From: Myxococcales bacterium
Lineage (GTDB): Bacteria > Myxococcota_A > UBA9042
Assembly: GCA_037441385.1 (NCBI GenBank)
Contig: JBBISH010000048.1
Span: 1 to 41,482, forward strand
Direction of reading: 5' to 3'
Length of the DNA stretch: 41,482 nucleotides
In this document: positions 1,330-20,163 of the stretch, one piece after another
Layout: each line of letters begins with the position of its first letter
Position numbering within the stretch: position 1 is the stretch's first letter
Translations under genes and position numbers: made by a program
Notes under the pieces: model-generated
The model's input: the letters and a program-made list of their open reading frames with translations, nothing else
What the model was told of the DNA's origin: nothing
The model's database searches: none

Positions 1330-1748
1330 GGGGCAGGCGGTTTAGCGCGTTTGGCCAGCAAGGTCCAGCAGGCCACGGCGGCGGCCGCGCCGGTCGCGTC
1401 GGCAAGGAGGTCCCACGCGTCGCAGGAGCGCCCAGGGACCCAGCTTTGGTGGATCTCGTCCAGGCCGCCAAAGGCCGTCGCGAACACCCAGGCTTGCAGC
1501 GAGGCCCGGCGGCCGCGCAGGCCCAGCCGCCACAGCGCCCCCAACAGCGCGTAGATCGCCGTATGCACGACCTTGTCCGGCGGCACGACCGCGAGCACGG
1601 CCAGCAGCCAGCCCGGCAGCCCGTCGAGCACAGGCCGCGCCTCGGGCCAGGTCCGCGACGACGACCACCAGATCGTCGCGCTCCAGGCCAGGGCCGGCGC
1701 CAGCCGTAGCCGGATCGCAAGGTTGCGGAGATTCATCTTAGATTTCAT
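1326..1748 (-). CDS. VanZ family protein
   Basis: DKVVHTAIY and DEIHQSWVPGRSCDAWDLLAD; start at 1748 or 1736; 4-nt overlap with the next gene. Confidence 0.85.
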   Translation of the reverse strand: MKSKMNLRNLAIRLRLAPALAWSATIWWSSSRTWPEARPVLDGLPGWLLAVLAVVPPDKVVHTAIYALLGALWRLGLRGRRASLQAWVFATAFGGLDEIHQSWVPGRSCDAWDLLADATGAAAAVACWTLLAKRAKPPAP

Positions 1749-1750
1749 AA

Positions 1751-1778
1751 ATCTGACACAAGGGTGCTTCGTGTCAGA
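1751..1778. repeat. Dispersed motif copy 1 (ATCTGACACAAGGGTGC, 1751-1767) with TCTGACAC-N11-GTGTCAGA dyad
   Basis: Exact 17-mer also at 3842 and 16928; lies between the miaB stop and the vanZ start. Confidence 0.9.
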
Positions 1779-3153
1779 CCAACTGGCCACCCAACGAATT
1801 CTGGCCCACCAGGTCAATCCGCACACGGCCCAGCCGGCCGACGAGCGCCGCGAGCTGATCCGGGGTGTCGACCGGCACGTTGACCTTCAGGTTCTCGGGC
1901 GTGCGCCCCATCACCTGCAGGCCGCGGCTCTCGCGGACCTGGCTGAGCTTGCTCTGCGGCCCGGCCTCGTGCAGACGCGACGGCCCCTCGAACAGCACCT
2001 CGACTTCGCGACCGTGGAAGCCGGCCAGCCACTCGGCCGTCATGGCGTCTTGCACAGCCTGCAACCGCTGAAGACGGCGCTTCTTTTCGGCCAGCGGCAC
2101 GTCATCCTTCAGCTCGGCGGCACGCGTCCCCGGCCGGGCCGAGTACATGAAACTGTACAGGGTGGCGTAGCGCACGCGGTCGAGCAGCTGCATCGTCATC
2201 TCAAAATCGTCAAGCGTCTCGCCGGGAAAGCCGACGATCAGGTCCGTGGACAGCGCCACGTGCGGGGCGATCCGCCGCAGCTTGTCCACCTTTTCCAGGT
2301 AGTCGTCCACGCCGTGGTGGCGCCGCATCCCTGCGAGCACGGCCGGCGAGCCCGACTGAATCGGCAAGTGGAAGAACGGCATTAGCTTTTTGCAGGTGGC
2401 GAAGGCTTCGATCAGCGCGTCCGTGCAGTCCATCGGGTGCGAGGTGGTGAAGCGAATGCGCTCCAGGCCGTCCACCGCCGCGACTTGGTGGATGAGCTCG
2501 GCAAAATCGACCTCGCCCTCGCGATCTTTGCCGTAACTGTTGACGTTTTGACCCAGCAGGGTGACCTCGCGCACCCCTGCGTCGACCAGCAACTGCACCT
2601 CGCGAACCACGTCGGCCGCCGGCTTGCTGACCTCGCGGCCGCGGGTAAAGGGCACGATGCAGAAGCTGCAGACCTTGTTGCAGCCCTTCATCACCGTGAC
2701 CATCGAGGTCACCCGGCCGTCGCTCGGCGCCACGGGCTCGGGGAACGCGTAGTCGCGGCGGTGGACAAAGGCGGTGGCGGCTTGGCGCTGGTTCTGGGCG
2801 CGGCGGGCCTCAACCAGGCCGGGCAACTGCGCAATCTGGTCCGGCCCCACCACCAGATCCAAGTGCGGCAGCTTGTCCAGGAGCTTCTGCCCCTCTTGCT
2901 GCGCCACGCAGCCCGCCATGCCAAGGACGAGATCGGGATTGAATTCTTTGAGCTTCTTCCACACACCCAGCAGCGACGTGACCTTGTGCTCGACTTTGTC
3001 GCGCACGGAACAGGTGTTCACGATGGCCAAGTCAGCGCGCTCGACCTCGCTGGTGGGCACATAACCCGCTGACGCCAAAGCCTCTTGCATCCGCTCGGTG
3101 TCGTACACGTTCATCTGGCAGCCCATCGTCTCGATGTAGACATGGCGCTGCAT
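1774..3153 (-). CDS. miaB: tRNA-2-methylthio-N6-dimethylallyladenosine synthase MiaB
   Basis: ETMGCQMNVYD, NTCSVR, GCNKVCSFCIVP (CxxxCxxC), LLGQNVNSY, RIRFTTSHP, C-terminal TRAM domain; alternative start 3234. Confidence 0.95.
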   Translation of the reverse strand: MQRHVYIETMGCQMNVYDTERMQEALASAGYVPTSEVERADLAIVNTCSVRDKVEHKVTSLLGVWKKLKEFNPDLVLGMAGCVAQQEGQKLLDKLPHLDLVVGPDQIAQLPGLVEARRAQNQRQAATAFVHRRDYAFPEPVAPSDGRVTSMVTVMKGCNKVCSFCIVPFTRGREVSKPAADVVREVQLLVDAGVREVTLLGQNVNSYGKDREGEVDFAELIHQVAAVDGLERIRFTTSHPMDCTDALIEAFATCKKLMPFFHLPIQSGSPAVLAGMRRHHGVDDYLEKVDKLRRIAPHVALSTDLIVGFPGETLDDFEMTMQLLDRVRYATLYSFMYSARPGTRAAELKDDVPLAEKKRRLQRLQAVQDAMTAEWLAGFHGREVEVLFEGPSRLHEAGPQSKLSQVRESRGLQVMGRTPENLKVNVPVDTPDQLAALVGRLGRVRIDLVGQNSLGGQLV

Positions 3154-3290
3154 CTGGCTGCCGATCCCCTCCAACTCCGCCTGAGCGTGAGCCTTTTGGG
3201 CAATCGAAAGGGAACTGGCTCCGGTCAAAGTCATGGCGCGGCCGTTGGCGGGCAGCGAGCCCGCGCAGAAAGTTTTGCTAGTTCGGTAGG

Positions 3291-3839
3291 TTAGAGACCA
3301 CCCAGGCTGGGATCGTGCAGCGTCCAGGCATAGCCCTCGAACCGCATCGCGACCTTGCGCTTGTGGCCGGCGCCGTCGCCGATCTCCAGATCCTGAGCAA
3401 CGACGCGGTCGTCCGCCGCAGTCGCCACCAGTTGCAGCGTCTTCAGGTCGGCCAGGGCGAACACGACCACCGGGTCGAAGGGCGCCGCCTGGTCCAGCGC
3501 GGTCCCCTTGTCGGTCGCTCGCGGCAACTTCTTGAGCAGCAACAGGTCTTGCCCCTTGAGCCCAGCCAACTGCGCCCGCTTGACCAGGGCCGCCCGCGTA
3601 TCGCTGGACAGCTGCCCCCAGGCCGCCGCCACGTCGCCGCGCCGCATCGCCGCCACAAACCGCTGGCAGCCGTCGACCGCCGGGTGGGTGCGCCGGCTGA
3701 CGGACACGGTGTGGGCCTTGACGCTCGCCGGCTCGCCCTGCAGCTCCTCGAGCTGGGCGCCGCCACAACTGGCTGCCGCAAGGCCCAGAACCAGCAGCGC
3801 GGGCCGTGCAGAAAATCGCAAATTCGTAAGTATCATCAT
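3291..3839 (-). CDS. Hypothetical lipoprotein
   Basis: Signal peptide ending LAAASC; typical codon usage; start at 3839 or 3836. Confidence 0.65.
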   Translation of the reverse strand: MMILTNLRFSARPALLVLGLAAASCGGAQLEELQGEPASVKAHTVSVSRRTHPAVDGCQRFVAAMRRGDVAAAWGQLSSDTRAALVKRAQLAGLKGQDLLLLKKLPRATDKGTALDQAAPFDPVVVFALADLKTLQLVATAADDRVVAQDLEIGDGAGHKRKVAMRFEGYAWTLHDPSLGGL

Positions 3840-3841
3840 AG

Positions 3842-3858
3842 ATCTGACACAAGGGTGC
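3842..3858. repeat. Dispersed motif copy 2
   Basis: Exact ATCTGACACAAGGGTGC; 2 nt from the ATG of the minus-strand lipoprotein gene. Confidence 0.9.
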
Positions 3859-3887
3859 ATTGGGGAGATGCTGTGTGGGGATGCGGG

Positions 3888-5744
3888 CTAGAAACCGGGC
3901 TGGCGGGTGGCCGTGAAATCGCCCTTGAACGCCTTGCCGGCCGCGCCCTGGACGTTGATGGTGCCCGTCCACACGCCGTCGGTGAGCTTGTCGACCTTCA
4001 GGTCATCGTTGTTGTCTTCCATCATGCACTTGCCGGTGAGCGACAAGTTCGAATCCAGGGCCAGGCCGCCGATGTACTGCTCCAGTGGCAGCACCAACAG
4101 GCTGACGGTGGTGTCGCAGAAGCCCTTCACCGTCGACTCCGACAGGCCCAGCTTGCCCAGGATCGAGTTGCCGATGCCCGAGGCGATGCCGGCGCAGTTC
4201 ACCAGTTTCTGCATGGCGCCGATGAACGTCGTCTCGCCCGTGATCTTCTTGAGGACCACCTGGGTCAGGACGAACAGGATGAGTTTGCCGTAGTTGAGCT
4301 TGATGGTCGACGAGTCGATCGACAGCTTCTTCTGCTCAGACACCGAGCCCGTCAGCGTCCCCGAGAAGAAGTCGAGCGGGAAGTTCGGGTCCGTAGAGGC
4401 CTTGGAGGCATCGAGCGAGAACTTGCCACAATCCGCGTAGTTCGGATCGTTCTTGTCGCAACCCAGCTTCCAGTACAGGTTGACGCCGGTGAAATCGATC
4501 TCACCCTTGATGAAGAAGTCGTTGGTGACCTTGTAGATCTTGAGGACGCCAATCATCTCGAGCTTCTTGACGATCTGCATCACGTCCTGGCCCATCTGGA
4601 AGAAGCTCTGCAGCCAGGGCGGGCTCTTGTTGAGCAGCCAGTCCGTCACGACCTTGCTCAGCGCGTCCTCGAACAGCCCGAACGCCGCGTCGACGACGAT
4701 CGACGGCAGCACCTGCTTGACCAGATTCTTGACTTGAGCAATCAGGAAGGCGCCGGGATCATAGAAGATCTGCACGGCCGTATCGAGGATCTGCCCCAAC
4801 TGCCCAGGGATCGCCCCGGTGAAGTCGAAGTGGTTGATCATGTCGTACGGGCCCGCCGCCTGCAGCGGCAAAGTGGCCAGCGACACGGTCACTTCGGTGG
4901 TCTGCTTGTCGATGACCAGCACGGCGTCCGCACAGCCCGCCGCCGCCAGGTGACCCGCTAGGTCCTTGCCGATCACGTAGACGCCGTACTTCTTGTCTGC
5001 CGGAAGCGGCGTAAATTCAGGCGTATCCGTCAAGATCGTCGTCTGGCTGCCCACCCAGCCCTCGCTGGGGTACACCGGCTTGAAGCCGACGCAGGCAAAC
5101 GGCGACGGCATCACGCGCACGGTGACCTGGCCCAGCGAAACCTGGTTGTCGTACAGCATCTTGACCTTGATGCCGCCCTTGGGGTTGTCGGTGACGGAGA
5201 TGACCACGTCGACCGGATCGGCGGCCTCGCAGCTCACCCGCAGCTTGTAGTCGACCGCGGGGCTTTTGTTCGCGTCAAAGACGTTGCCGGTCAGGCCCGC
5301 ACCATCCGTGAAGGTGTTCGCCGAGTCCAGGGCGCCCGCGCCGGGGCCGTTCATCCCGTTGTTTTCAATGATCTCCCACATCACCGCCACGCCGTCGGCC
5401 GGGCCGCCGTGGGTGTAGTCGATGACCTTGGCGTAGATCGGCAGCTTCCCGCTGGGCGCGAGCATCTGCACGACCTGGGTGTTCAGCATCAGGATGATCT
5501 CGCGTTTGAGCGGGATATCCGCCTGTTCTCCGGCGTCGGGCGTGTTGTCCACGTCGCCGATCGGCGCGGTGTCGCTGACCTTGACGTCCTTCTTGGTGTT
5601 GAGGTTGCCGCCGTCGCCAAATAGCCCGGCGTCGGGGTAGACCACCGTGCCGACCTGGAGCGTGTCGCTGCAAGCCTGGGTGCCAAACGCGAGGAGGAGC
5701 CACCAGGCGATCGGCCAGACTACTCGGCGGACATGGGCCAACAT
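3888..5744 (-). CDS. Large secreted lipoprotein, probable Ig-like domains and disulfides (myxobacterial type)
   Basis: Signal peptide ending GTQAC; GAGGT RBS; strong coding bias; paired cysteines. Confidence 0.75.
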   Translation of the reverse strand: MLAHVRRVVWPIAWWLLLAFGTQACSDTLQVGTVVYPDAGLFGDGGNLNTKKDVKVSDTAPIGDVDNTPDAGEQADIPLKREIILMLNTQVVQMLAPSGKLPIYAKVIDYTHGGPADGVAVMWEIIENNGMNGPGAGALDSANTFTDGAGLTGNVFDANKSPAVDYKLRVSCEAADPVDVVISVTDNPKGGIKVKMLYDNQVSLGQVTVRVMPSPFACVGFKPVYPSEGWVGSQTTILTDTPEFTPLPADKKYGVYVIGKDLAGHLAAAGCADAVLVIDKQTTEVTVSLATLPLQAAGPYDMINHFDFTGAIPGQLGQILDTAVQIFYDPGAFLIAQVKNLVKQVLPSIVVDAAFGLFEDALSKVVTDWLLNKSPPWLQSFFQMGQDVMQIVKKLEMIGVLKIYKVTNDFFIKGEIDFTGVNLYWKLGCDKNDPNYADCGKFSLDASKASTDPNFPLDFFSGTLTGSVSEQKKLSIDSSTIKLNYGKLILFVLTQVVLKKITGETTFIGAMQKLVNCAGIASGIGNSILGKLGLSESTVKGFCDTTVSLLVLPLEQYIGGLALDSNLSLTGKCMMEDNNDDLKVDKLTDGVWTGTINVQGAAGKAFKGDFTATRQPGF

Positions 5745-5834
5745 CGCAACCTCGCAGCGAATTGCCGAGTCATCTCGGCCTGGGTCGGCGCCATCGCACA
5801 CGGGTGGCTGGGGCGCACGCAAGAACCCACCCTG

Positions 5835-5862
5835 AGCATACGGCAAATCGGCCGGTTTTCAA
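5835..5862 (-). promoter_or_regulatory. Putative sigma70 promoter of the leftward gene cluster
   Basis: TTGAAA-N16-TATGCT on the minus strand, about 90 nt upstream of the 5744 start. Confidence 0.45.
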
Positions 5863-5907
5863 TGCCGAACCGCGAGCGAAGGCGACGGCGGGGACTGCGG
5901 TTTTGGG

Positions 5908-5936
5908 TTGACCGCCCCGGACCGCGGGCGTACCAT
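5908..5936 (+). promoter_or_regulatory. Putative sigma70 promoter of rpsA
   Basis: TTGACC-N17-TACCAT, 110 nt upstream of rpsA. Confidence 0.65.
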
Positions 5937-6046
5937 ACCGCGCCCCTGAACAGGGCATTTGGCCGGTCTCGCGAATTCTTCAAGCAGCGCAGCGCCCCTC
6001 ACGTCGAGGTGGCCGCGCGCGAGCGGTCGAGAGCAAAGGAAAGAAT

Positions 6047-7738
6047 ATGTCCGCAAATACGCAAGGTTTCATGATCGACGAGGATTTTGAGAAAGCATTT
6101 CTCGAGTGGGAAAAGCAGCAGAACGTGATCGAGGGCGAGATCGTTCGCGGCAAGGTCCTGTCGGTCAACAAGGACTTCGTGATCGTCGACATCGCCTACA
6201 AGAGCGAAGGTCAGATCCCGCTGGCTGAATTCACCGAACACGACGGTTCGATCAGCGTCCAGCCGGGCGACGAGATCGACGTCTACGTCGAGAACCGCGA
6301 GAACGACAACGGCCTGGTCGAGCTGAGCAAAGAGAAGGCCGACCGCCTGCGTATTTGGGACGAGATCGCCGAAGCCTGCGAGAACGAAGAGCTCGTCGAA
6401 GGCGTCATCACCGGTCGCGTCAAGGGCGGCCTCACGGTCGACATCGGCGTCAAGGCGTTCCTGCCCGGCAGCCAGGTCGATCTGCGCCCGGTCCGCAACC
6501 TCGAGAAGTACATCGGCCAGCGCTTCCACTTCAAGGTCATCAAGTTCAACAAGAAGCGCGGCAACATCGTCCTGAGCCGTCGCGCCCTGCTGGAGAAGCA
6601 GCGCGAGGCCCTGAAGAGCCAGACCCTCGGCAAGCTCGAAGTGGGCATGGTGGTCGACGGCATCGTCAAGAACATCACCGATTACGGTGCGTTCATCGAC
6701 CTGGGCGGCATCGACGGCCTGCTGCACATCACCGACATGAGCTACGCGCGGGTCAACCACCCCAGCGAACTGTTCGAAGTCGGCCAGGAAGTGAAGGTCA
6801 AGGTCCTGAAGTACGACCCGGATCGCGAGCGCGTGAGCCTGGGCCTGAAGCAGAACTTCGAGGATCCGTGGCTGACGATCGAGCAGAAGTACCACGTGGG
6901 CATGCGCGTCAAGGGCAAGGTCGTGAGCCTGGCCGATTACGGCGCGTTCATCGAGCTGGAGGGCGGCGTCGAGGGCCTGATCCACATCAGCGAGATGTCG
7001 TGGACCAAGCGCGTCAAGCACCCCTCCAAGGTTTTGTCCATCGGCGACGACGTCGAGGCGCAGATCCTGGACATCGATCAGCGCAACAAGAAGATCTCGC
7101 TGGGCATGAAGCAGATCGAGCAGAACCCGTGGGACGTGCTGGCCCAGACCTACCCGGTCGGCAGCAAGGTCAAGGGCGTGGTCCGCAACATCACCAACTT
7201 CGGCATCTTCATCGGCATCGAAGACGGCATCGACGGCCTGTGCCACGTGACCGACCTGAGCTGGTCGCACAAGGTCAAGCACCCGCAGGACATCTACAAG
7301 AAGGGCGACGAGCTCGAGGCGGTGGTCCTGGCCATCGACCCCGACAAGGAGCGCTTCAGCCTGGGTATCAAGCAGTTGCAGTCGGATCCGTGGTCCGAAG
7401 TGCAGCGCAAGTACGGCCGCGGCTCGTGCCACGAGGGCAAGGTCGCCAAGATCTTGGACTTCGGCGCGATCGTCGAGCTGGACGACTACATCGAGGGCTT
7501 CCTGCACATCAGCGAAATCGCCGAGGAGAAGGTCGACAACATCCACAACGCGCTGAAGGAAGGCCAGACCGTCAAGGTCAAGGTCATCTCGGTCATCCCC
7601 GAGGAGCGCAAGCTGGGCCTGTCGATCAAGCGGGTGGACAACGATGACGACGAGTCGTCGTTTGAGAACCCGACGGCTGGCGCGACGACGATTGGGGACT
7701 TGGTTCGCGAGAAGTTCGGGAACTTGAAGCTGAACTAG
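6047..7738 (+). CDS. rpsA: 30S ribosomal protein S1
   Basis: Repeated S1 domains (AFLPGSQVD, GAFIDLGGIDGLLHITDMS, GLIHISEMSW); AAGGA RBS; highly biased codons. Confidence 0.97.
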   Translation: MSANTQGFMIDEDFEKAFLEWEKQQNVIEGEIVRGKVLSVNKDFVIVDIAYKSEGQIPLAEFTEHDGSISVQPGDEIDVYVENRENDNGLVELSKEKADRLRIWDEIAEACENEELVEGVITGRVKGGLTVDIGVKAFLPGSQVDLRPVRNLEKYIGQRFHFKVIKFNKKRGNIVLSRRALLEKQREALKSQTLGKLEVGMVVDGIVKNITDYGAFIDLGGIDGLLHITDMSYARVNHPSELFEVGQEVKVKVLKYDPDRERVSLGLKQNFEDPWLTIEQKYHVGMRVKGKVVSLADYGAFIELEGGVEGLIHISEMSWTKRVKHPSKVLSIGDDVEAQILDIDQRNKKISLGMKQIEQNPWDVLAQTYPVGSKVKGVVRNITNFGIFIGIEDGIDGLCHVTDLSWSHKVKHPQDIYKKGDELEAVVLAIDPDKERFSLGIKQLQSDPWSEVQRKYGRGSCHEGKVAKILDFGAIVELDDYIEGFLHISEIAEEKVDNIHNALKEGQTVKVKVISVIPEERKLGLSIKRVDNDDDESSFENPTAGATTIGDLVREKFGNLKLN

Positions 7739-7747
7739 TTCAGCTTC
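7726..7747. repeat. Perfect 22-bp palindrome over the rpsA stop codon
   Basis: GAAGCTGAACTAGTTCAGCTTC is self-complementary. Confidence 0.9.
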
Positions 7748-7857
7748 GCGTTCGCCGTAACGCCGCCTCACACCCCGCCGGCTACGCCGGCAGCCTCCCC
7801 GCTCGCCCGGAGTCCACTGGACTCCGGGCGTGGCGCTTTTTGGCGCCACCGCGGGGT

Positions 7858-7895
7858 CCCCTTCTCCAACGCACTGGAGAGAGGGGCTTTCTTTT
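7858..7895 (+). terminator. Rho-independent terminator after rpsA
   Basis: CCCCTTCTCCA-ACGCAC-TGGAGAGAGGGG stem followed by CTTTCTTTT. Confidence 0.7.
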
Positions 7896-8124
7896 CGGGG
7901 GTTCGGGTGGGGTCGATTTGTGCGCGAAGTGCGGCGGTGGGGCACGGCGTGATGTCGCGCCTGTTCGGCAAGTTCAAGAAGGCGCGCAAATTGGCAGAGT
8001 TGCTGATTTGCGGCAGCCTTAGATCGGTGGCCCGACCTGCTGCTCGCCAGCGAGGCACGGCCAACCTGGCGCAAATTCGCCAAATCTCTAAAGGTGTTGT
8101 GCAGCCCAGGGCCCGGTCAGCGCC

Positions 8125-9429: not shown

Positions 9430-9765
9430 TGCACTGAGGCTACGCCGCGCGCGCGGCCCGCGTCAAAGCGACGCCCTTGCGACGGCAGGTTGCGAAGGCA
9501 GGCTGGGGGCCATTTTCTACTCCCCGTAATCACTGCGGAACGTGCGCCGCGTCAGCGATGCAGGCCCCAGAGGGGTGGCGGCGCGCGGGAGCGTCGCCAC
9601 CGCCGGGAGCAAGAATCCTGGATTCATCCAGGGTTTCGCAACGACCGGCGGCCGCAGCGCGACGGTCCGGGCAGGTAGCCCCGATGCCAGCCCGCGCCCT
9701 GCGACCCGGACCGGGACGCCCAGAACACCGCCCGCATGCTCGATAAGCCAATCCCAAGGCAGGGA

Positions 9766-10596
9766 CTATTGCCCTGGGCGCCAAGCGGTAAAGTCGTAAA
9801 GCGACTCCTCGGTGCGCTCGCTCCGGCCCAGCAAAGTCGCCTGCGCCGAGCGGCCGCCATCCAGCCACAGGCGCTCGCCGCGCAAGTCCGCCGGCAGCGC
9901 GGCCGCTACGGGCCCCGCACCGGTGCGCCCGTCGTAAGAGAGCAGCGTTGGAACCCCCCGCAACTGCAGCTGATACAGGCCGGCCAGCAGTTCCTCGGAG
10001 CGCATCTGCATGGCGTAGCGACGGTCGGCCCCAATCGTGGTGCCCAGGTAGGGCGGGTCGAGAAAGACCAAATCATCCATCGTTGCGTCGTGGACGGTCG
10101 CCAGCCAGTCCCCGGCGCGGACCTCGCACCGCCCAGCCAGCAGCCGATGGGCCTGGCTCACCGCGGCGCGCAGCCGGTCGGGATGTACCCCCAACCGCCG
10201 CCGGTCGGCCGACTGCGAGAAGTCGCCGCGCGCCGAAAACCGCACCGCGTTCTTGACGCAGCGTGCCAACAAGTAGTGAAGATCAAACGGGTCACGCGTC
10301 CGATTGAAGCGCTCGCGCACCGCGTTGTAGCCATCTGGTTCGGCCCAGCGCAGGGCGTAGGCGTCGGCCACGCGGTCGGGTGCGCGCAGGATTTCCGTCC
10401 ACAGTTCAGCGAGTTCAGTCAGAGCGTCGCCGATCACAAAGCGCTCGGCCAGGCCGTGACTCGCGGCGTACAGGGCCATGGCCGCCGAGCCCGCGAACGG
10501 CTCGTACAACACCCTGATTGGGCTAGGAAAATGGCGGGCAATCTGTGGGGCGAGCCGCCGCTTGCTGCCTTGGTATGGGATCGGCTGCTTCAGCAT
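9766..10596 (-). CDS. DNA adenine methyltransferase, D12/Dam class, apparently orphan
   Basis: PIPYQGSK, EPFAGSAA (SAM binding), VFLDPPY (catalytic); no adjacent restriction gene recognised. Confidence 0.9.
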   Translation of the reverse strand: MLKQPIPYQGSKRRLAPQIARHFPSPIRVLYEPFAGSAAMALYAASHGLAERFVIGDALTELAELWTEILRAPDRVADAYALRWAEPDGYNAVRERFNRTRDPFDLHYLLARCVKNAVRFSARGDFSQSADRRRLGVHPDRLRAAVSQAHRLLAGRCEVRAGDWLATVHDATMDDLVFLDPPYLGTTIGADRRYAMQMRSEELLAGLYQLQLRGVPTLLSYDGRTGAGPVAAALPADLRGERLWLDGGRSAQATLLGRSERTEESLYDFTAWRPGQ

Positions 10597-10713
10597 AGCC
10601 GCGATCTTGAGGGAGTTGGGTTGCGCGGGCAAGCGGTCTACAATCGCCGCGCGCCCAGGAAGCAATCGGGAGTCGACCGTGCCTCACCCATCAATTTCAG
10701 AGTATGTTCATGG

Positions 10714-10740
10714 ATCTGACACGAGGGTGCTTTGTTTCAG
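10714..10740. repeat. Dispersed motif copy 3 (ATCTGACACGAGGGTGC, 16/17)
   Basis: One mismatch to the core; imperfect dyad CTGACAC...GTTTCAG; in the divergent MTase/GH36 region. Confidence 0.85.
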
Positions 10741-12643
10741 GAGCAGTATTCTCGCGCTCTCAGTGTTGGTCGGATGCGCCAGCAGCGACGTCGCAGCACC
10801 TGCGTCGGTCCCGAGCGTTGGGCCCGTCGCGGGCAAGGTACACACCACGTCGAAAGCCGGGAACGTCTTGCTGGCGCCGCGTGCCATGGTGAACGGCGAG
10901 TGGCTGGCGCCCACCGGCGCCTGCGTAGGCCTGACGCAGATCGACTACCCGCCCGAATTCGCCTGCCCGCTGGCACCCTTCGGGAAGCTTTGGGTGCGGC
11001 AGCAGGCGGTGGGGGCCACTCCGGGGATTCCCGCCTGGACCGTCGAGCTCGAACTCGCCCAGGACGCGACCGTGCAGGGCTTCGAGCTCGCTGGAACGTG
11101 GTCGGTACCGGGCGCCAACCGGTGGTGGTCCCAGGGCTTCCAGAGCTGGTCGCAGTCCGGCGTCCTCGCCCTGCGCGACGCGCAACCCAGCGAAACAGCG
11201 ACCGCTGCGGCACTGGCCGTGCGCGGCGACAGCGAGGTGATGCGCACCGGCGCCGAGCTCAGCTGGTGGTCGACCGAAGTCAGCGGCGACAAGAATGCAC
11301 TAGTCGTGTCGGCCCTTTCCGCGGACACTTGGCGCAGCTGGGTCCAGGTGTGGAGCGCCCAAGGCTCCGGGGGAATCCGCCTCGTCTCGGGCGCCACCGG
11401 CGAAGCCGTCCACGGAGCAAAGGGGCAGATCGTCCGCAGCGAGCCGTGGGTCATCCTCGGCACCACCGACCGCAAATCGACGTGGCAATCCGTCGCCAAG
11501 CTTTGGAGCGGACGGCGCGACGATCCGGAACTGGGTTGGAACTCGTGGTACGAACTCTGGGATTCCGTCAGCGAGCCCAGCTTCCTCGCCAACCTCGCCA
11601 AAGCCAAGGAAGTCCTCGCCAGCCCCGCCGCGCTCGCCGCCTACCCGACCGCGGGGCGCCGCATCGTGCTGGACGACGGCTGGCAGGTGGCCTGGGGCGA
11701 CTGGCGCAGCAACGATAAGTTCCCCAGCGGTCTCAAGGGCTTGGTCGACAAGGCCAAGGCGGACGGCTTCGCGATGGGCCTGTGGCTGGCGCCGTTGCTG
11801 GTCAGCGAGAAGCTGCCCATCGTCGCCGAACACCCAGACTGGTTCGTGGGCGGCGCGGTCTACAATCACCTGAAGAACGGCAACATGCGCGTCCTGGACG
11901 TGACCCATCCCGACGCAGCTGCGCACCTGTCCGCCGAGATCAAGGCGCTGGCCGACGCCGGGCTCACGCTGCTCAAGATCGATTTCCTGTTCGCCGGCAC
12001 CTGGGAAGGCGCCCGCCACGAGCCTCTGACAGGAATGCAGGCTTATGTCAGATCATTGGAATTGATACAGAAAGCCGCGGGACCCAAGGTCAAGCTCCTC
12101 GCCGTGGGCGCCCCGCCGCTGGGCACGATCGGCCGGGTCGGCGCATGGCGGCAGGGCAGCGACATCGCCCTCGAAACCTTCGGTGCGGTCTGGGCGTTCC
12201 TCCCCAGCCAGTTGCGAACGCTGTCGGTCCGGTGGCCGTACTGCTTTGCGGTGGCGTGCGACGCCGACCCGGTCCTGCTCCGCAGCCTGACCGCCGACGA
12301 GGTCGGCTTTGGCGCCCTGACGGTGGCGGCGGCCGGCGGCGGCTGGTGGCTCAGCGACGACCTGACCAAGCTGCCGGGCGAGCGCCTGGACCAGGCCCTG
12401 CAGACGCCGTGGACCCAGGCCGCCCTCCACGGTCCGGCAATCCCCGAAGCCGCGCTGTCGGGCCTGCCCCCAGCCAGCTTGGTCAGCGGTCTCAAGGACT
12501 TTCTTGGCAAGCAGAGCACCCATGTCCTGCCCACGGTGTGGCGGCTCGGCACCGGCCAGCGCGCCGCCGTCAACCCGACCGACGCCCCCATCACGGTCGA
12601 GGGAACCGCCGTCCCACCCCACGCCGCCCGGCCGCTCCCCTGA
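10727..12643 (+). CDS. GH36-like alpha-galactosidase lipoprotein
   Basis: GWNSWY, VLDDGWQ, GLWLAP and LKIDFL motifs; lipobox LVGC; GTG start inferred. Confidence 0.8.
   Translation: MLCFRSSILALSVLVGCASSDVAAPASVPSVGPVAGKVHTTSKAGNVLLAPRAMVNGEWLAPTGACVGLTQIDYPPEFACPLAPFGKLWVRQQAVGATPGIPAWTVELELAQDATVQGFELAGTWSVPGANRWWSQGFQSWSQSGVLALRDAQPSETATAAALAVRGDSEVMRTGAELSWWSTEVSGDKNALVVSALSADTWRSWVQVWSAQGSGGIRLVSGATGEAVHGAKGQIVRSEPWVILGTTDRKSTWQSVAKLWSGRRDDPELGWNSWYELWDSVSEPSFLANLAKAKEVLASPAALAAYPTAGRRIVLDDGWQVAWGDWRSNDKFPSGLKGLVDKAKADGFAMGLWLAPLLVSEKLPIVAEHPDWFVGGAVYNHLKNGNMRVLDVTHPDAAAHLSAEIKALADAGLTLLKIDFLFAGTWEGARHEPLTGMQAYVRSLELIQKAAGPKVKLLAVGAPPLGTIGRVGAWRQGSDIALETFGAVWAFLPSQLRTLSVRWPYCFAVACDADPVLLRSLTADEVGFGALTVAAAGGGWWLSDDLTKLPGERLDQALQTPWTQAALHGPAIPEAALSGLPPASLVSGLKDFLGKQSTHVLPTVWRLGTGQRAAVNPTDAPITVEGTAVPPHAARPLP
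12025..12053. repeat. Dispersed motif copy 5, inverted (14/17), inside the GH36 gene
   Basis: Reverse complement of 12037-12053 is ATCTGACATAAGCCTGC; dyad TCTGACA-N14-TGTCAGA; run of rare codons. Confidence 0.7.
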
Positions 12644-12827
12644 GCCCCGCCGCAGTTGCCCAAGCGCAGGGGTGGATGGCCCGATCGCGCCGGATCCGGC
12701 GAGCACCGCCCCACCGTCACCGGACCCGATTGCCGCCCCAGGATTCTGTGCTACGCTCGCCCTGGCGGCAGGGCCCTTGGGCACGGTCGCTTCGGCCCCG
12801 GCGGTCCCCCACCACCCTGGAGCCCGC

Positions 12828-14279
12828 ATGGCACGCCTGCTGATCGTTGATGACGAGCTCTCGCTCCGCGAATTCCTGACCATCTTTCTCCGCAAAGAGG
12901 GCCACGAGGTCGAGGTGGCCAGCAACGGCCAGCGCGCCCTGGAGCAGCTCCAGCAGGGGCACTTCGACCTGGTTCTGACCGACCTCCGCATGCCCCGTAT
13001 GGGCGGCTTCGAGCTCCTCGACGCCATCAAGGCCAGCGACTGGAACACGCAAGTTATTGTCATGACAGCGTTCTCTAGCACAGAGACCGCCCTAGATGCC
13101 ATGCGCCGCGGGGCGTACGACTACATCGTCAAGCCCTTCAAGCTCGACGAAGTGCGCCTCATCATCCAGAAATGCCTCGAAAAATCGCAGCTGGTGGCCG
13201 AAAACCAGCAGCTCAAGAAGAAGCTGGCGCAAGGCTCGGCCAAGAAGGCGCAGTTCATCTGGAAATCCAAGGCGATGGACGACGTGGTCCAGCTCATCCG
13301 CCGCGTCGCCAACACGCCCTCGTCCGTGCTCATCCAGGGCGAGTCGGGGACCGGCAAGGAGCTCGTCGCGCGCATGCTCCACGACGGCAGCGAACGCAAA
13401 AGCCGTCCCTTCGTCGCACTGAACTGCGGCGCCATCCCCGAACAGCTCATGGAGAGCGAGCTTTTTGGCCACGTCCGCGGCAGCTTTACCGGCGCCACCA
13501 AAGACAAGAAGGGTCTTTTCGAGGCGGCGAGCAGCGGCACCATCTTCCTGGACGAGATCGGCGAGCTCAGCCTGGGCCTGCAAGTCAAGCTCCTCCGCGT
13601 CCTTCAAGAGCGCGTCGTGACCCCAGTCGGCGATACCCGCGAAGTCCCCGTCGATGTCCGCGTGGTGGCGGCCACCCACCGCAACCTCCGCGAGTCTGTG
13701 CAGGAAGGGCGGTTCCGCGCCGACCTCTATTTCCGCCTCAACGTCATCGAAGTCCGCATGCCACCCCTCCGCGAGCGCCGCGAAGACATCTTGCCGCTGG
13801 CCCGCCACTTCCTCACGCAGTTTGCACAGCGAATGGGTCGCGATATCAAGGATTTCGATCCCGAGGCCGAGGCGATCCTCACGACGCTCCCGTATCCGGG
13901 CAACGTCCGCGAGCTCGAGAACCTGGTTGAGCGCGCGGTGGCCCTGGAGCCCGGCGATCGCATCTCGCCCACTTGGTTGCCCGATCCAGGCCAGTCCAGC
14001 TGGCTAGGCGGCACCGGAGCGAACGCGGCCCGCGAAGAGGCCGTGCTCAAACCCGTCGATCAGGTGCAGCGCACCATCGAGTCTGTGGACCGGTGGCTGG
14101 AAAAGACCAACAGTCCTGTTGACCTAGAGGCCCTCATCGACCGCTTTGAACGCGGGGTGATGGACGCGGCGCTGCGCCAGACCGCCGGCAACAAGACCGA
14201 TGCGGCCCGCCTGCTGGGTCTGACCTTCCGATCGATGCGCTACAAGCTCGCCAAGTACGGTGCGGACAGCAATTCGTAG
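12828..14279 (+). CDS. pilR: Sigma54-dependent response regulator (REC-AAA-Fis HTH), PilR-like
   Basis: LIVDDE, TDLRMP, GESGTGKE, GSFTGA, GNVRELEN, C-terminal LTFRSMRYKL; directly upstream of a pilin gene. Confidence 0.85.
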   Translation: MARLLIVDDELSLREFLTIFLRKEGHEVEVASNGQRALEQLQQGHFDLVLTDLRMPRMGGFELLDAIKASDWNTQVIVMTAFSSTETALDAMRRGAYDYIVKPFKLDEVRLIIQKCLEKSQLVAENQQLKKKLAQGSAKKAQFIWKSKAMDDVVQLIRRVANTPSSVLIQGESGTGKELVARMLHDGSERKSRPFVALNCGAIPEQLMESELFGHVRGSFTGATKDKKGLFEAASSGTIFLDEIGELSLGLQVKLLRVLQERVVTPVGDTREVPVDVRVVAATHRNLRESVQEGRFRADLYFRLNVIEVRMPPLRERREDILPLARHFLTQFAQRMGRDIKDFDPEAEAILTTLPYPGNVRELENLVERAVALEPGDRISPTWLPDPGQSSWLGGTGANAAREEAVLKPVDQVQRTIESVDRWLEKTNSPVDLEALIDRFERGVMDAALRQTAGNKTDAARLLGLTFRSMRYKLAKYGADSNS

Positions 14280-14374
14280 TCCGCGGACCGAACTCTCGCA
14301 ACACGGAAACTTGAATCGGCTTGGCGCCCACGGCCAGCGGGGACCGCCTTGGGTTCGTGCCAGGCGCGGAGCGC

Positions 14375-14389
14375 TGACATTTTTTGTCA
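14375..14389. promoter_or_regulatory. Putative enhancer (UAS) for PilR
   Basis: TGACA-N5-TGTCA inverted repeat about 110 bp upstream of the -24/-12 promoter. Confidence 0.5.
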
Positions 14390-14499
14390 CCCAGGTGCCG
14401 CATCGCGTCCATCCTGGCCCGCGCGAAGGGGCGATGCGGCAGCGAGTGGCACTCATTTATCCAAACGTTTTCATAGTTCTAGAACGAATGCGCCAAGAT

Positions 14500-14515
14500 T
14501 GGCATCGCTCGTGCA
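14500..14515 (+). promoter_or_regulatory. Sigma54 (-24/-12) promoter of pilA
   Basis: TGGCATCGCTCGTGCA has correct GG-N10-GC spacing; preceded by an AT-rich, IHF-like tract (14455-14485). Confidence 0.75.
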
Positions 14516-14705
14516 AGAGTAGCGTGTGCGGCCGCACCGCCGGTCGCGAGAGCCTCCCTCGCGGAACGCTCTAACGGGTATCCAAAATGGCAGCGGTCAT
14601 CCGGGGCCCGATGGGTACCCCAACGTGACAGCGGTTGGCCGACGGCGAGTGCCGGACGGGTCAGCGTGGCGCAGTTGCCGGCAACGCCGGTCAGGAGTAC
14701 AGACA

Positions 14706-15281
14706 ATGCTGAAGAATTTCCGTAACGAAAAGGGCTTCACCCTCATCGAACTCATGATCGTCGTGGCCATCATCGCGATTCTGGCCGTCGTCGCCGTGCC
14801 CCAGTTCACCAAGTACATGCGCTCGGCCAAGGCTGCTGAAGCGAACGAAATGCTGGACCTGATCAAGAAGGGCTCGGCCTCGTACTACAGCGCGCCGCGC
14901 ACCGAGAAGGGCACCGGCAAGAAGATCGAGTGCCAGTTCCCGGCCAACGCCATCGGCACCCCGACCGGCACCTCGTGCTGCATCGACCAGAACGACGCGG
15001 ACAACGACGAGCGCTGCGACGCCAACCCGCTGAACTGGAACAACGCCACTTGGTCGGCGCTGAAGTTCGCCATCACCGATCAGCACTACTTCATCTACAG
15101 CTACCAGAGCTCGGGTCTGTACGGCCAGGCCATCTTCACCGCCGAAGCCAACGCCGACCTGGACTGCGACACCACCATGTCGACCTTCCAGCTCGTGGGC
15201 AAGGGCGATCCGAAGTCCACCGGCGCCGAGTGCGACATGCAGGGTTCGGCCGCCATCTTCCGCGACAACGAGACCGAGTAA
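14706..15281 (+). CDS. pilA: Type IVa major pilin
   Basis: Prepilin leader MLKNFRNEKG|FTLIELMIVVAIIAILAVVAVPQF; AGGAG RBS; sigma54 promoter; own terminator; biased codons. Confidence 0.9.
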   Translation: MLKNFRNEKGFTLIELMIVVAIIAILAVVAVPQFTKYMRSAKAAEANEMLDLIKKGSASYYSAPRTEKGTGKKIECQFPANAIGTPTGTSCCIDQNDADNDERCDANPLNWNNATWSALKFAITDQHYFIYSYQSSGLYGQAIFTAEANADLDCDTTMSTFQLVGKGDPKSTGAECDMQGSAAIFRDNETE

Positions 15282-15303
15282 GTCGGCCTAGCGATAGGAA
15301 AGT

Positions 15304-15345
15304 GCTGGGGGCTCGGGCGGAAACGCTCGGGCCCTTGGCCTTTTT
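15304..15345 (+). terminator. Rho-independent terminator after pilA
   Basis: GCTGGGGGCTCGGGCG-GAAA-CGCTCGGGCCCTTGGC stem followed by CTTTTT. Confidence 0.75.
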
Positions 15346-15351
15346 GGGGCA

Positions 15352-15561
15352 GCTAGGAGCGTGTCGGGATAATCCCGGCACAATCCTAGCGCCGCGTCTT
15401 GCGCGGCGGCAACTGGCTGAAATCGCACGAATTCACTTCGGGCGATTTTCGGCCAGTTGGACAAACGAAAAAGGCTAGGAGACTGGCGACACCCAATAAG
15501 ATCATAATGTATAACTAAATGAACATGTAGTGTCGCCCATTTTGCCTACAGGCTCCTAGCC
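15352..15561 (+). repeat. Chain of four inverted-repeat elements in the pilA-GMC intergenic region
   Basis: Stems at 15352-15390, 15391-15407, 15410-15459 and 15473-15561. Confidence 0.7.
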
Positions 15562-17019
15562 AACCTGCCGCGCGACCGCCTGACCGCACAGCGTCGCCAG
15601 AGCGAGGATCGAGGTCTGCGGGTTGACGCCCGTATTGGTTGGAAACACGCTCGAATCGGCGACCCAGAGCCCCTTGGTGCCGTACAGTGTGAAATCGGGA
15701 GCCACGGCGCCGCGTTGCGGGTCGCTCGCCATCCGGCAAGTGCCAAAGAGGTGCGTCATCGCCATCGGCCACGCGCGCGGGTCTACGGACGCCTCGCGCT
15801 CGAACTGGTCGATCTCGTCAAGGGTTCGCAGCTCGGCCGCCGCGCCGTGCACGCCTGGCATGGCCACCTCGGCCCCCGCCGCCACCATCATCCGCGCCAT
15901 CACCGCCACCCCGCGGCGCACCTTGTGCATGTCCGCCGGTGTCAGGCCATAGCGAACCTGCAGCGGCGTCAAAAGCCCAGGCCGGACCGTGCCTTCCGCT
16001 TCAGCGCGCACGGCGACGCCCCAATGCGCCCAGTGGTCCAGGTCGTCGATCGCCCGCGCGAGCGAGGCCCCCACGCCCTTTTGCCGCATCGCCGCCAGGG
16101 CCGCATCGTAGCCCAAGGCTTCGAACTTCAAGCCCTCTTTGCGCAGGCCGATGACTTCGTGCCCCTGGGTCGCGCCTTGCCACATCCGCACCGGTTCGGC
16201 AAAGCGCCCCGTCAGGGACGCGCCGGGGTGCCCCATCAAGTGCTGGCCCACGTGGCGGTTGCCCAGCCCCGCTTTCTGCAGCAGCGCCGGGGTCTGCAGG
16301 GCGCTCGCGGCCAGCACCACCCCCTTGCAGCGCACTTCGACCGGACCCTGCGGCGACTGGACCAGCAGCCCGTGAGCGGCGCCGTCGCGGTGTAGGACCC
16401 GCAACACCTTGTGATCGGGAAGGATCTTGGCGCCAGCGACCTCCGCGTCGCGCAAATAGGTCAGGTCCATGCTCTGCTTGGCGCCTTGGGGACAACCCTC
16501 TAGGCACTGACCAAACCCCTTGCATCCCAGCGTGTTGCGCGCGATCGGCCGGTGCTCCAACCCTAGCGCCTCGGCGCCCTTGGCCAACAGCAGGTTGTTC
16601 GGGCCGGCGATCGCATCCGGGGTGGGCTGGATGTGCAGGTCGCGCTCGATCTGGTCAAAAAGGTTCTGCAATCGCTGGGGTTCCAAGACTTCGCTCAGCC
16701 CCGGATCGGCGGCGACCCAGGCGTCGCGCACATCGGCCGGCAGGCGCCATGAGATCGCGCCGTTGATGAGCGAACCGCCGCCGACGGCCCGGCCCTGGAT
16801 GAGCGGCAGCATCGCCCGGCCCTGGGCGACCACACCGCCCAGATCGCGGTACAGGTGCGCCAGGGCGAAGAAGCCGTCGCGGCCAAGGTCTTGCGGTTTC
16901 GCGCGAGATCCCTCTTCAAAAACAGCGATCTGACACAAGGGTGCTAGGTGTCGGGCGACCGCGGCGCCGGCCGGGCCAGAGCCGACGACGGCCACGTCGC
17001 AGCAGATCGGCGGGTTCAT
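15556..17019 (-). CDS. GMC family FAD oxidoreductase
   Basis: VVGSGPAG, GRAVGGGSLIN, CKGFGQCLEGCP.GAKQS, HLFGTCRM, DSSVFPT..GVNPQ. Confidence 0.9.
   Translation of the reverse strand: MNPPICCDVAVVGSGPAGAAVARHLAPLCQIAVFEEGSRAKPQDLGRDGFFALAHLYRDLGGVVAQGRAMLPLIQGRAVGGGSLINGAISWRLPADVRDAWVAADPGLSEVLEPQRLQNLFDQIERDLHIQPTPDAIAGPNNLLLAKGAEALGLEHRPIARNTLGCKGFGQCLEGCPQGAKQSMDLTYLRDAEVAGAKILPDHKVLRVLHRDGAAHGLLVQSPQGPVEVRCKGVVLAASALQTPALLQKAGLGNRHVGQHLMGHPGASLTGRFAEPVRMWQGATQGHEVIGLRKEGLKFEALGYDAALAAMRQKGVGASLARAIDDLDHWAHWGVAVRAEAEGTVRPGLLTPLQVRYGLTPADMHKVRRGVAVMARMMVAAGAEVAMPGVHGAAAELRTLDEIDQFEREASVDPRAWPMAMTHLFGTCRMASDPQRGAVAPDFTLYGTKGLWVADSSVFPTNTGVNPQTSILALATLCGQAVARQVG
16928..16955. repeat. Dispersed motif copy 4, inside the GMC gene
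   Basis: Exact ATCTGACACAAGGGTGC at 16928-16944 with right arm GTGTCGGG. Confidence 0.9.
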
Positions 17020-17990: not shown

Positions 17991-18098
17991 ACTCACCTCG
18001 GCAGACTTGGGCCCCGCTTGCGCTGGCCTGGCGACCGCTTCAAGCTACCCTGTCGGGGCGGGTGCGAGCAAGCGCCAAAGCCGCGATCGGACAAAGCC

Positions 18099-20036: not shown

Positions 20037-20163
20037 GTCGAGTCCTTTGCCGGCCGCCAGGCCGCTGGCGCCGCGCATGGTCCGCCGGCCGCCGTCGCCG
20101 GTCAAGCACAGCCACGCTATGCTGCTGCGCGGCCGCACCTCCCTGGCGCGCCCAAGGATCGCC

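Follow-up and report, generated by a model that had tools for sequence, protein, structure and literature searches.

The window considered here is a stretch of 41,482 nucleotides from a Myxococcales bacterium (GenBank assembly GCA_037441385.1, contig JBBISH010000048.1, positions 1 to 41,482 of the forward strand). Its left 17 kb contain five copies of a short repeat, referred to below as the element, which are distributed among genes for a miaB/rimO-like radical SAM protein, a VanZ-like protein, lipoproteins, an orphan Dam-type adenine methyltransferase (dam), a GH36 alpha-galactosidase and a GMC oxidoreductase (Table 1). In a related genome recovered from groundwater, copies of the same element flank and occupy a gene encoding a transposase of the Y1 HUH type, the likely partner of the element.

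Copies of the element in the window

The exact 17-mer ATCTGACACAAGGGTGC occurs three times in the window, at positions 1751, 3842 and 16928, always on the (+) strand, and is accompanied by a fourth (+) copy with 1 mismatch at 10714 and by a (-) copy with 3 mismatches at 12037-12053 (window motif scan). These five copies compare with 0.06 matches expected at up to 3 mismatches, and none of 100 shuffles reached five; the five-copy motif described in the initial annotation is thus real, with all its positions confirmed. The four (+) copies were also grouped into one family of 48 nt by an independent repeat finder. A profile built with nhmmer from 17 copies recovered the four at E 3.5e-16 to 2.7e-11, together with 12042-12080 (copy 4) at E 7e-4, and detected no further copy in the window at E<=10, hence none past 17 kb, as had been noticed before. 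The earlier statement that every copy sits in an A/T-rich island holds for four of the five, which overlap one of the 17 islands of the window (40-nt windows with GC<=42.5%), but not for copy 5, which fails this threshold.

Copies 1 and 2 are located in short spacers between co-directional (-) genes. Copy 1 occupies the entire spacer from the stop codon of the miaB-like gene to the start of vanZ, its arm containing the miaB stop TGA (1774-1776), with the (-) ATG at 1748-1746. The methyltransferase gene, previously taken for a (+)-strand host of the motif, lies in fact on the (-) strand (the (+) open reading frame (ORF) 9736-10719 belongs to no family), so that copy 3 is placed between divergent genes. 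The GH36 lipoprotein starts at a GTG (10727) formed by positions 14-16 of the core of copy 3, and the GH36 protein of the related genome, as deposited, begins with MLFGVLVLGLSAVAGC at the same GTG. Copies 4 and 5 lie within coding sequence and, in agreement with the initial annotation, are written in rare codons: among 6393 windows of 15 codons (16 genes), 14 have at least nine A/T-ending codons, at 4 places, two of which correspond to the intragenic copies 4 and 5.

Anatomy of the element

The element is a unit of about 46 bp, in which the information content of 17 independent copies climbs sharply at -20 and drops after +26. Read along one strand, it consists of an ATT box at -20, about 12 nt of A/T-rich sequence, TTCAT at -7 to -3, two variable nucleotides and a hairpin of 27 nt, TCTGACAC-AAG-GGTG-CTT-C-GTGTCRGA, in which a stem of 11 bp, interrupted by a single bulged C, is capped by a GGTG loop. 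At the foot of this structure the consensus is (A)TCTGA, or TCCGA on the other strand. The 5' arm and the loop are invariant while the 3' arm drifts, and the conserved core of the 17 copies is asymmetric. The dyad of about 27 bp recognized in the initial annotation corresponds to this hairpin, into which the best copies fold.

In copy 1 the bulged hairpin is perfect over its 11 bp (-8.8 kcal/mol, z=-3.1). The same fold, or a variant devoid of the outer pairs only, represents the minimum free energy structure in 7 of the 17 folded sequences (-6.9 to -8.8 kcal/mol), one of the seven being a minus strand, that of copy 1. The 3' arm is decayed in copies 2 and 3 of the window and, elsewhere, in copies L008a, L008b and L016, and no significant hairpin is found for copy 2 (z -0.8). 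Since searching for exact matches keeps the 5' arm constant, the pairing data are limited to occupancy and wobble counts. In this respect, the G.T wobbles are strand-specific: pair 4-26 is a T.G pair in 8 cases on the (+) strand of the element and in none on the (-) strand. This asymmetry suggests that the folded strand is the one antisense to most of the host genes and, as far as the sequences tell, points to an element that would fold as DNA rather than as mRNA.

Several familiar signals were tried and rejected for the element. By-eye fits to sigma-54 (TGGCAC-N5-TTGC), sigma-32 and extracytoplasmic function (ECF)-type promoters, on both strands, fail in spacing or in key bases. An MrpC/CRP-type operator (GTGTC-N8-GACAC) would require the arms in the reverse order of those of the element (GACAC…GTGTC), whose spacer is conserved and asymmetric. 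As for integron attC sites, which have GTTRRRY ends, neither such ends nor an integrase among the ORFs scanned were seen. None of the 4 sigma-70-like promoter sites and 18 terminator-like sites predicted in 1-17100 overlaps a copy, and an Rfam 15 scan of the whole window gave no match at any copy. The sole Rfam match in the window, a weak SECIS_2 at 8399-8429 (+) with 26.5 bits against a gathering cutoff of 70 (E 0.38), is most likely due to chance. A GATC, the Dam site, is created at the 5' edge of the core by a G at -1 in 8 of the 17 independent copies, among them those of the window at 3841-3844, 10713-10716 and 16927-16930; an orphan Dam-type methyltransferase gene adjoins copy 3.

Distribution in other genomes

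An exact scan for the 17-mer in 185,579 species genomes (596 Gb, a collection that does not include the window) yielded 22 loci, with about 69 exact hits expected by chance under uniform composition. Half of these loci (11 of 22) come from a single metagenome-assembled genome (MAG) from groundwater, JACRCU01, labelled Deltaproteobacteria, which contains 12 exact copies on 6 contigs, and one more (L004) comes from a Myxococcales MAG and has flanks of the family type. The other 10 are singletons in unrelated taxa, where the profile match is limited to the core and amounts to 18-22 bits; family members score 39-55 bits over 49-58 profile positions. The profile added three degenerate copies in the JACRCU01 flanks (L022 1598-1651, L008 650-694 and L007 155-192), which brings the known content of this fragmented MAG to 12 exact plus 3 degenerate copies, as compared to 5 in the 41 kb of the window. 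The repeat is lineage-specific, occurring in an uncultured Myxococcota-like ("Deltaproteobacteria") lineage.

Three JACRCU01 loci are syntenic with the window: L022 with 251-3144 (86-90% identity), L007 with 9779-12231 (77% identity) and L003 with 15565-18444 (86% identity), the gene order being the same at all sites compared. The local clustering noticed in the window recurs in JACRCU01, where 9 of the 15 known copies are found on contigs 230 and 411, which are syntenic with window 251-3144 and 9779-18444 and include the gene of the Y1 transposase. The element is kept at all four orthologous sites that could be tested (copies 1, 3, 4 and 5, the site of copy 2 not being covered). The ortholog of copy 1 in L022 has a core identical at 17 of 17 positions and is followed by a second tandem copy: L022 1530-1652 is a 123-nt insertion relative to the window and carries this second, slightly diverged element, so that the same site holds one element in the window and two in L022. 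Either a duplication in JACRCU01 or a deletion between tandem copies in the lineage of the window accounts for this difference. On its gene-sense strand, the insertion contains an 18-codon proline-rich mini-ORF. Another tandem pair, 160 nt apart, occurs in L008, tandem copies being 126-160 nt apart overall, and contig 477 of JACRCU01 contains 3 direct copies spaced by 1263 and 1028 bp, which bracket single genes.

Genomic context and orientation

The initial annotation had considered that hits spread evenly and mostly intergenic would denote an ordinary repetitive extragenic palindromic (REP) sequence or a miniature inverted-repeat transposable element, against its own proposal. To a large extent the mostly intergenic location is observed, 14 of the 17 independent copies being extragenic: 7 lie between co-directional genes (counting copy L022b), 1 between convergent and 3 between divergent genes, and 3 have one flank that is unknown or far. 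The element is in this way mainly extragenic and situated between unidirectional or convergent ORFs, as REPs are. Among the unambiguous cases, i.e., copies that are intragenic or located between co-directional genes, 9 of 10 share the same orientation relative to transcription (p=0.02), the exception being the L002 copy between Rrf2 and rplU; the convergent case is L017.

The genes flanking the copies in the window and in JACRCU01 (vanZ, lipoproteins, dam, GH36, GMC, rplU, FdhD, DUF2330, ADH, radical SAM) have no common function according to their Pfam families, as had been stated previously. The arm of the element supplies the TGA stop codon of miaB in the window and that of a radical SAM gene in L013, and many copies end 2-57 nt ahead of a start codon. 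The WTG of the element is in frame for vanZ and for the lipoprotein; as a general start signal it was discarded, since most copies open a mini-ORF of 2-9 codons ending in a stop.

Constraint on the core and overprinting of two coding segments

Only one of 51 core positions differs in the three orthologous pairs compared (50 identical, P=8e-8), the neutral reference being the third-codon-position identity of seven syntenic genes (0.681, n=2380). Together with the rare codons, this result bears out the proposal of the initial annotation that selection (or homogenisation) acts on the DNA itself. In the comparison with L007, the core of copy 3 represents an island of identity in diverged intergenic DNA, 14 of 29 positions being identical outside the core.

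In the GMC oxidoreductase, copy 5 covers the Rossmann alpha1-beta2 loop. Nearly all of the 38 orthologs whose N-termini were read (listed identity 53-59%) display ARxLARAGxxVVVLEEG or a close variant, whereas the proteins of the window and of JACRCU01 read ARHLAPLCQIAVFEEG and are one residue shorter. The deposited GMC protein of JACRCU01 (P0160, from L003) starts with MCQIIVFEEG at the TTG of the motif and is devoid of the FAD-binding GxGxxG, while the L003 ORF is open and conserved upstream of this start; the repeat has probably misled the automatic start call.

In the GH36 protein, the segment encoded by copy 4, which belongs to a helix of the TIM barrel, aligns without gap with the Thermotoga maritima enzyme (PDB code 1ZY9) and shows no indel relative to the 51 orthologs read. 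TGMQAY is kept in these orthologs, exactly or with small changes (Q to E, A or S; M to I or L; Y to F in two; G to P in three), and precedes x(R/L)AL..IR(E/K)A. The lineage of the window has TGMQAYVRSLELIQKA instead, in which the derived residues and the A/T-ending synonymous codons all shift the sequence toward the element, and the three core mismatches of copy 4 fall exactly in the Q-A-Y codons. Copy 4 is conserved in JACRCU01.

The Y1 HUH transposase linked to the element

The Y1 gene of JACRCU01 (L008:375-1475, (-) strand) is a 366-aa ORF, deposited as a 325-aa "transposase" (P0002), and occurs just beyond the 3' end of the dam ortholog, at a spot non-syntenic with the window. Two tandem copies of the element lie 26 and 186 nt upstream of the ORF (L008 1501 and 1661), and one full-length copy (L008 650-694) lies in frame within the linker of the ORF itself. 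All three copies are direct, the nearest inverted copy being located about 1 kb beyond, past dam. In the DNA examined, the gene is present in one copy with no tnpB nearby, the contig ending 125 nt past the outermost copy of the element. In JACRCU01, but not in the window, element copies flank a single-copy Y1 gene in the manner of a REPtron.

The protein matches Pfam Y1_Tnp with 24.8 bits (cutoff 23), the sole such match among the 39 ORFs scanned, and its sole NCBIfam match is REP_Tyr_transpos, the REP-associated tyrosine transposase (RAYT; E 5e-8, profile positions 8-144 of 146). The residues N59, H60 and H62 of the NHYH HuH motif, and R120 and Y121 of the RYILGQ stretch, are invariant in 8 homologs; H60, H62 and Y121 remain invariant in 17 homologs, N59 being nearly so. 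An AlphaFold (AF2) model built from an alignment of 8 sequences has pLDDT values of 74-93 (means over blocks of 10 residues) for residues 11-210. Among PDB structures, Foldseek ranks first 4ER8, in which TnpA-REP is bound to a REP hairpin (E 5.7e-7, target TM 0.70, rmsd 3.0 Å), and next the TnpA of IS200, ISDra2 and IS608, so that the Y1 protein has both the HuH motif and the catalytic Tyr on a core fold similar to that of IS200.

Where P0002 has the element-encoded peptide APLCQTHE, its two closest homologs (53-54% identity) have APSCQIVE and APLCQTHE, in a linker that is otherwise variable among homologs. As these two proteins keep the peptide at the same spot, the internal copy is an old feature of the subclade. 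At E<=1e-30 the clade comprises 234 clusters, of which about 40 are full-length. Its members (P0010-P0158) display the motifs NH[YF]H and RY[IL][LM]x[QHN]G and a conserved C-terminal FPxxxFPP, and, among 16 members sampled with Pfam, 5 have no match at all and 3 fall below the Y1_Tnp cutoff. A tblastn search of 72,556 plasmids with P0002 gave no match.

Comparison with known repeat and transposase systems

Almost every feature of the element has a precedent in the REP literature. As a rule, tnpA-REP genes have on either side REPs whose 5' foot is GT[AG]G, while TnpA-Y1 genes of subclass 2.6 and class 3 have atypical, weaker flanking hairpins without GT[AG]G, those of class 3 showing a 5' CnGA foot; moreover, REPs can lie in frame within tnpA-REP genes and within unrelated genes (Quentin et al. 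2018, PMC6006769). The location of REPs between unidirectional or convergent ORFs, REP termini serving as stop codons, head-tail dimers, G.T pairing, intragenic REPs and one REP family clustered at few loci are all described by Di Nocera et al. 2013 (PMC3733652). The flanking 16-mers have an abundance of about 12 to 140 in RAYT groups and of about 5 for housekeeping genes (Bertels et al. 2017, PMC5581495).

Compared with the REPs and RAYT of Escherichia coli (4ER8), the element shares the bulged, short and imperfect palindrome, its 27-nt stem-loop falling in the 20-40 nt range of REPs, as well as the extragenic preference, the unidirectional ORFs, the overlap with stop codons and the head-tail dimers. 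As in a REPtron, copies flank, and also sit within, a low-copy Y1 HUH/Tyr gene. It differs, however, by a large conserved loop plus 5' arm and by a 20-nt A/T-rich 5' extension, and the Y1 protein differs from RAYTs by its length (325-366 aa), its C-terminal extension and a Y---Q instead of the class 2 Y---NP.

The class 3 and subclass 2.6 systems are closer in their atypical, weaker hairpins, and the CnGA foot of class 3 compares with CTGA/CCGA in the element, a likeness to the published description of these hairpins. Class 3, known from Planctomycetes, Acidobacteria and Proteobacteria, likewise has a Y motif of the Q type, but its signatures (NHVH, W[TA], YV[VI]xEQ, median 178 aa) are unlike those of the Y1 protein (NHYH, FW/VW, RYILGQ, 325+ aa).

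Insertion sequences (IS) of the IS200/IS605 type (IS608, ISDra2) similarly associate a strand-specific hairpin with a Y1 HUH enzyme, and in JACRCU01 direct copies are found on both sides of the region coding for the catalytic domain. There is, however, no evidence of discrete IS ends, multiple gene copies or tnpB, the downstream copy lies within the ORF, and the elements are fixed at orthologous sites. The ATT box, some 18-20 nt 5' of the hairpin, is reminiscent of the left-end geometry of IS608, with a cleavage site about 19 nt 5' of the hairpin, and is a lead only. In the palindromic elements of Rickettsia, the repeat is translated in frame in unrelated, functional genes. In-frame translation within unrelated functional genes also applies to intragenic REPs (PMC3733652). 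Both kinds of repeats add residues to their hosts, whereas here the length is unchanged (GH36) or reduced by one residue (GMC) and the invariant residues are kept. In the literature, no paper was retrieved with the 17-mer, with its reverse complement or with either of two 14-mers, and, as judged from titles and the opening of the abstracts, none of the papers mentioning both "repetitive extragenic palindromic" and "Myxococcus" was relevant.

Interpretation of the element

Taken together, the element is probably an atypical, low-copy and locally clustered repeat of the REP/REPtron type, acting as the single-stranded DNA (ssDNA) substrate of a divergent Y1 HUH transposase. The enzyme, of the IS200/RAYT type and encoded among the copies in JACRCU01, would recognise the hairpin in its folded form, in the way of TnpA-REP and IS608 TnpA. 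Melting of the A/T-rich flank during replication or transcription would expose the hairpin, which would be bound, with nearby DNA being cut and rejoined. In this way copies may have been seeded into short intergenic spacers, where they now supply stop codons (miaB, radical SAM) and a start codon (GH36), and the same process might have generated the tandem doublets and the in-frame intragenic copies. It is to be understood that we infer binding, cleavage and mobility, and likewise the origin of the intragenic copies. In this respect, the recombinase-type site suggested in the initial annotation was nearer the mark than its other proposal, but the enzyme class would be that of the ssDNA HUH/Tyr transposases and not that of the recombinases acting on a CA-N6-TG core.

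If correct, this assignment would add to the known systems an atypical pair of REP and Y1 transposase, belonging to an uncultured Myxococcota-like lineage and characterized by the lack of a GTAG foot, a long conserved loop, an A/T-rich flank, a low copy number and local clustering, and served by a Y1 clade with a signature outside the published subclasses as tabulated. It bears on whether REP-type elements and single-copy transposases are selfish, mutualistic or domesticated. It also has consequences for annotation, since real start and stop codons come from the element, which has probably misled the pipeline that truncated a flavoprotein (P0160).

A number of observations weigh against this assignment. 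On the side of the enzyme, the NCBIfam score of 32.8 bits is far under the equivalog cutoff of 80 (NF047646), and RYILGQ fits none of the 12 TnpA-Y1 subclass signatures in the table of PMC6006769. The window has no homolog of the Y1 gene detectable by tblastn (best E 0.52), and the link between enzyme and element consists of one relative, plus peptide traces in two homologs known as proteins only. On the side of the repeat, the consensus contains none of the foot tetranucleotides GTAG, GTGG and CGTC, and no inverted doublets of the REPIN/BIME kind are found at the Y1 gene, where the copies are direct. The copy number seen is low, with 12 exact copies in a fragmented MAG. The strong constraint on the core and its retention at all four testable sites would not be predicted, from the sequences compared, for a decaying selfish repeat, and the orientation bias (9 of 10) could reflect a function instead. 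Copies 4 and 5 were written over ancestral protein segments in place rather than inserted, a pattern that is not accounted for by simple transposition. They could stem from replacement templated by another copy, with later reversion of the essential codons, or from selection on the DNA site itself. For specialists, these two conserved coding segments overprinted in place, together with the near-perfect core at orthologous sites, are the surprising part of the system.

Some of these observations lend credit to a different explanation, possible but rather unlikely, according to which the element is not selfish but a cis-site maintained by the host, recognised by some factor, either a Y1 protein that has been domesticated or a different one, and used in a chromosomal process in a neighbourhood of about 20 kb, such as regulation, replication or repair transactions, or domain organisation. 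The excess of core identity over the neutral value, the island formed by the core of copy 3, the occupation of all four testable sites and the clustering in both genomes fit such a site, as do the intragenic copies, which are near the consensus as far as invariant residues permit and, in the GMC loop, result from rewriting in place. Against it stand the functionally unrelated flanking genes and the spread of the copies over 6 contigs in JACRCU01; the tandem doublets and decayed 3' arms resemble repeat turnover, the sole DNA-binding protein implicated is a Y1 transposase, and concerted evolution could mimic constraint. With the same low degree of confidence, the copies can be pictured as host-selected landing sites for a domesticated Y1 HUH ssDNA enzyme, clustered around its gene. 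It would also be a tentative suggestion, no stronger than the former, that selection for the site rewrites conserved protein segments by means of rare codons and tolerated residue changes only. Such an element, if host-selected, would represent a new kind of chromosomal system associating a cis-element with a HUH protein, in DNA transactions coupled to replication or transcription.

A role at the mRNA level is quite improbable. The sense-strand hairpin would then serve, in intercistronic regions or 5' untranslated regions, as a site for processing or stability or for the binding of a regulator or small RNA, and the presence of the same strand in the mRNA in 9 of the 10 unambiguous cases, the copies ending 2-57 nt before start codons and the reported action of REPs as RNA elements (PMC3733652) agree with it. 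The G.T wobbles of pair 4-26 (8 versus 0) favour folding of the antisense strand instead, the 3' arm, and with it the hairpin, is lost in several copies, Rfam gives no match, and the L017 and L002 copies lie, respectively, between convergent genes and in the opposite sense.

The proposal put forward in the initial annotation, a chromosome-organisation site comparable to parS, matS or the binding sites of SlmA (SBS) and Noc (NBS), is now very improbable. Such sites are symmetric palindromes of short length, to which dedicated nucleoid proteins bind. The element resembles them as a clustered, partly intragenic and sequence-constrained DNA site confined to 17 kb of the window, but its conserved part is asymmetric, its orientation follows that of the host gene (9 of 10), tandem doublets 126-160 nt apart occur, the copies of JACRCU01 are scattered over 6 contigs, the linked protein belongs to a transposase family, and no ParB-, MatP-, SlmA- or Noc-like gene is found among the 39 ORFs scanned. 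Least probable of all is a target for conservative site-specific recombination, either an attC-like cassette boundary or an inversion/shufflon system swapping the 5' ends of genes, which would suit the direct copies bracketing single genes on contig 477, the copies at gene starts and the one inverted copy, but which is contradicted by the lack of integrase or invertase genes among the ORFs scanned and of R'/R'' ends of the GTTRRRY type, by bracketed genes that include housekeeping ones (miaB, the rpsA region, rplU), and by a gene order that is the same in both genomes.

Genes and other features of the window

The genes listed with the five copies of the element in Table 1 were called by frame analysis of the GC content at third codon positions (GC3) combined with Pfam.

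Table 1. Element copies and annotated genes of the window
Feature	Positions	Strand	Remarks
Element copy 1	1731..1778	+	ATT box 1731-1733, core 1751-1767, 3' arm 1771-1778
Element copy 2	3822..3867	+	48-nt spacer, stop of 652-aa ORF (3888) / lipoprotein start (~3839)
Element copy 3	10694..10739	+	Core with 1 mismatch; between divergent dam (-) and GH36 (+)
Element copy 4	12028..12073	-	Degenerate (14/17), overprinted on conserved GH36 helix (…PLTGMQAYVRSLELIQKA…)
Element copy 5	16908..16953	+	Exact core, overprinted on GMC oxidoreductase Rossmann alpha1-beta2 loop (…ARHLAPLCQIAVFEEG…)
Acyltransferase	2-493	+	
CAAX protease	484-1329	-	
vanZ-like gene	1326-1748	-	Directly downstream of copy 1; Pfam VanZ, E 1.6e-11
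miaB/rimO-like radical SAM	1774-~3159 (5' end approximate)	-	Stop in copy 1 arm; Pfam UPF0004, Radical_SAM; GC3
Lipoprotein	3291-3839	-	
Unknown gene	3888-5846	-	
rpsA	6047-7738	+	
Unknown gene	8125-9429	-	
Orphan Dam-type (D12) adenine methyltransferase	9766-10665	-	Pfam MethyltransfD12, E 1.5e-22; TIGR00571 80.7 bits, below cutoff
GH36 alpha-galactosidase lipoprotein	10727-12643	+	Hosts copy 4, starts within copy 3; Pfam Melibiase; PDB 1ZY9, E 2e-20
NtrC-type activator	~12843-14279 (ORF from 12504)	+	
Pilin-like	14526-15281	+	
GMC oxidoreductase	15556-17019	-	Hosts copy 5; Pfam GMC_oxred_N, GMC_oxred_C
Radical SAM	17016-17996	-	
lpd	18630-20195	-	

The GC skew of the 41-kb window is uninformative. 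The ORF at 8125-9429 (434 aa) has a lower GC3 (0.79) and two rare-codon clusters, and sits on that side of dam where JACRCU01 carries the Y1 transposase gene; it shows no Pfam or NCBIfam family and no similarity to the transposase gene. Within the 5' end of dam, 46 of the 47 bases at 10600-10646 are the same in L007, the third-position identity of dam being only 0.55. This block holds TTGGGT-N17-TACAAT on the (+) strand, directed toward GH36, and may, by its sequence, act as a promoter from within the dam gene. Finally, a strong terminator-like hairpin with 16 pairs (11 G-C) and a T-run occurs at 15304-15339 (+), immediately downstream of the pilin-like gene, in the intergenic stretch that is richest in A/T in the whole window, with 15468-15552 nearby.

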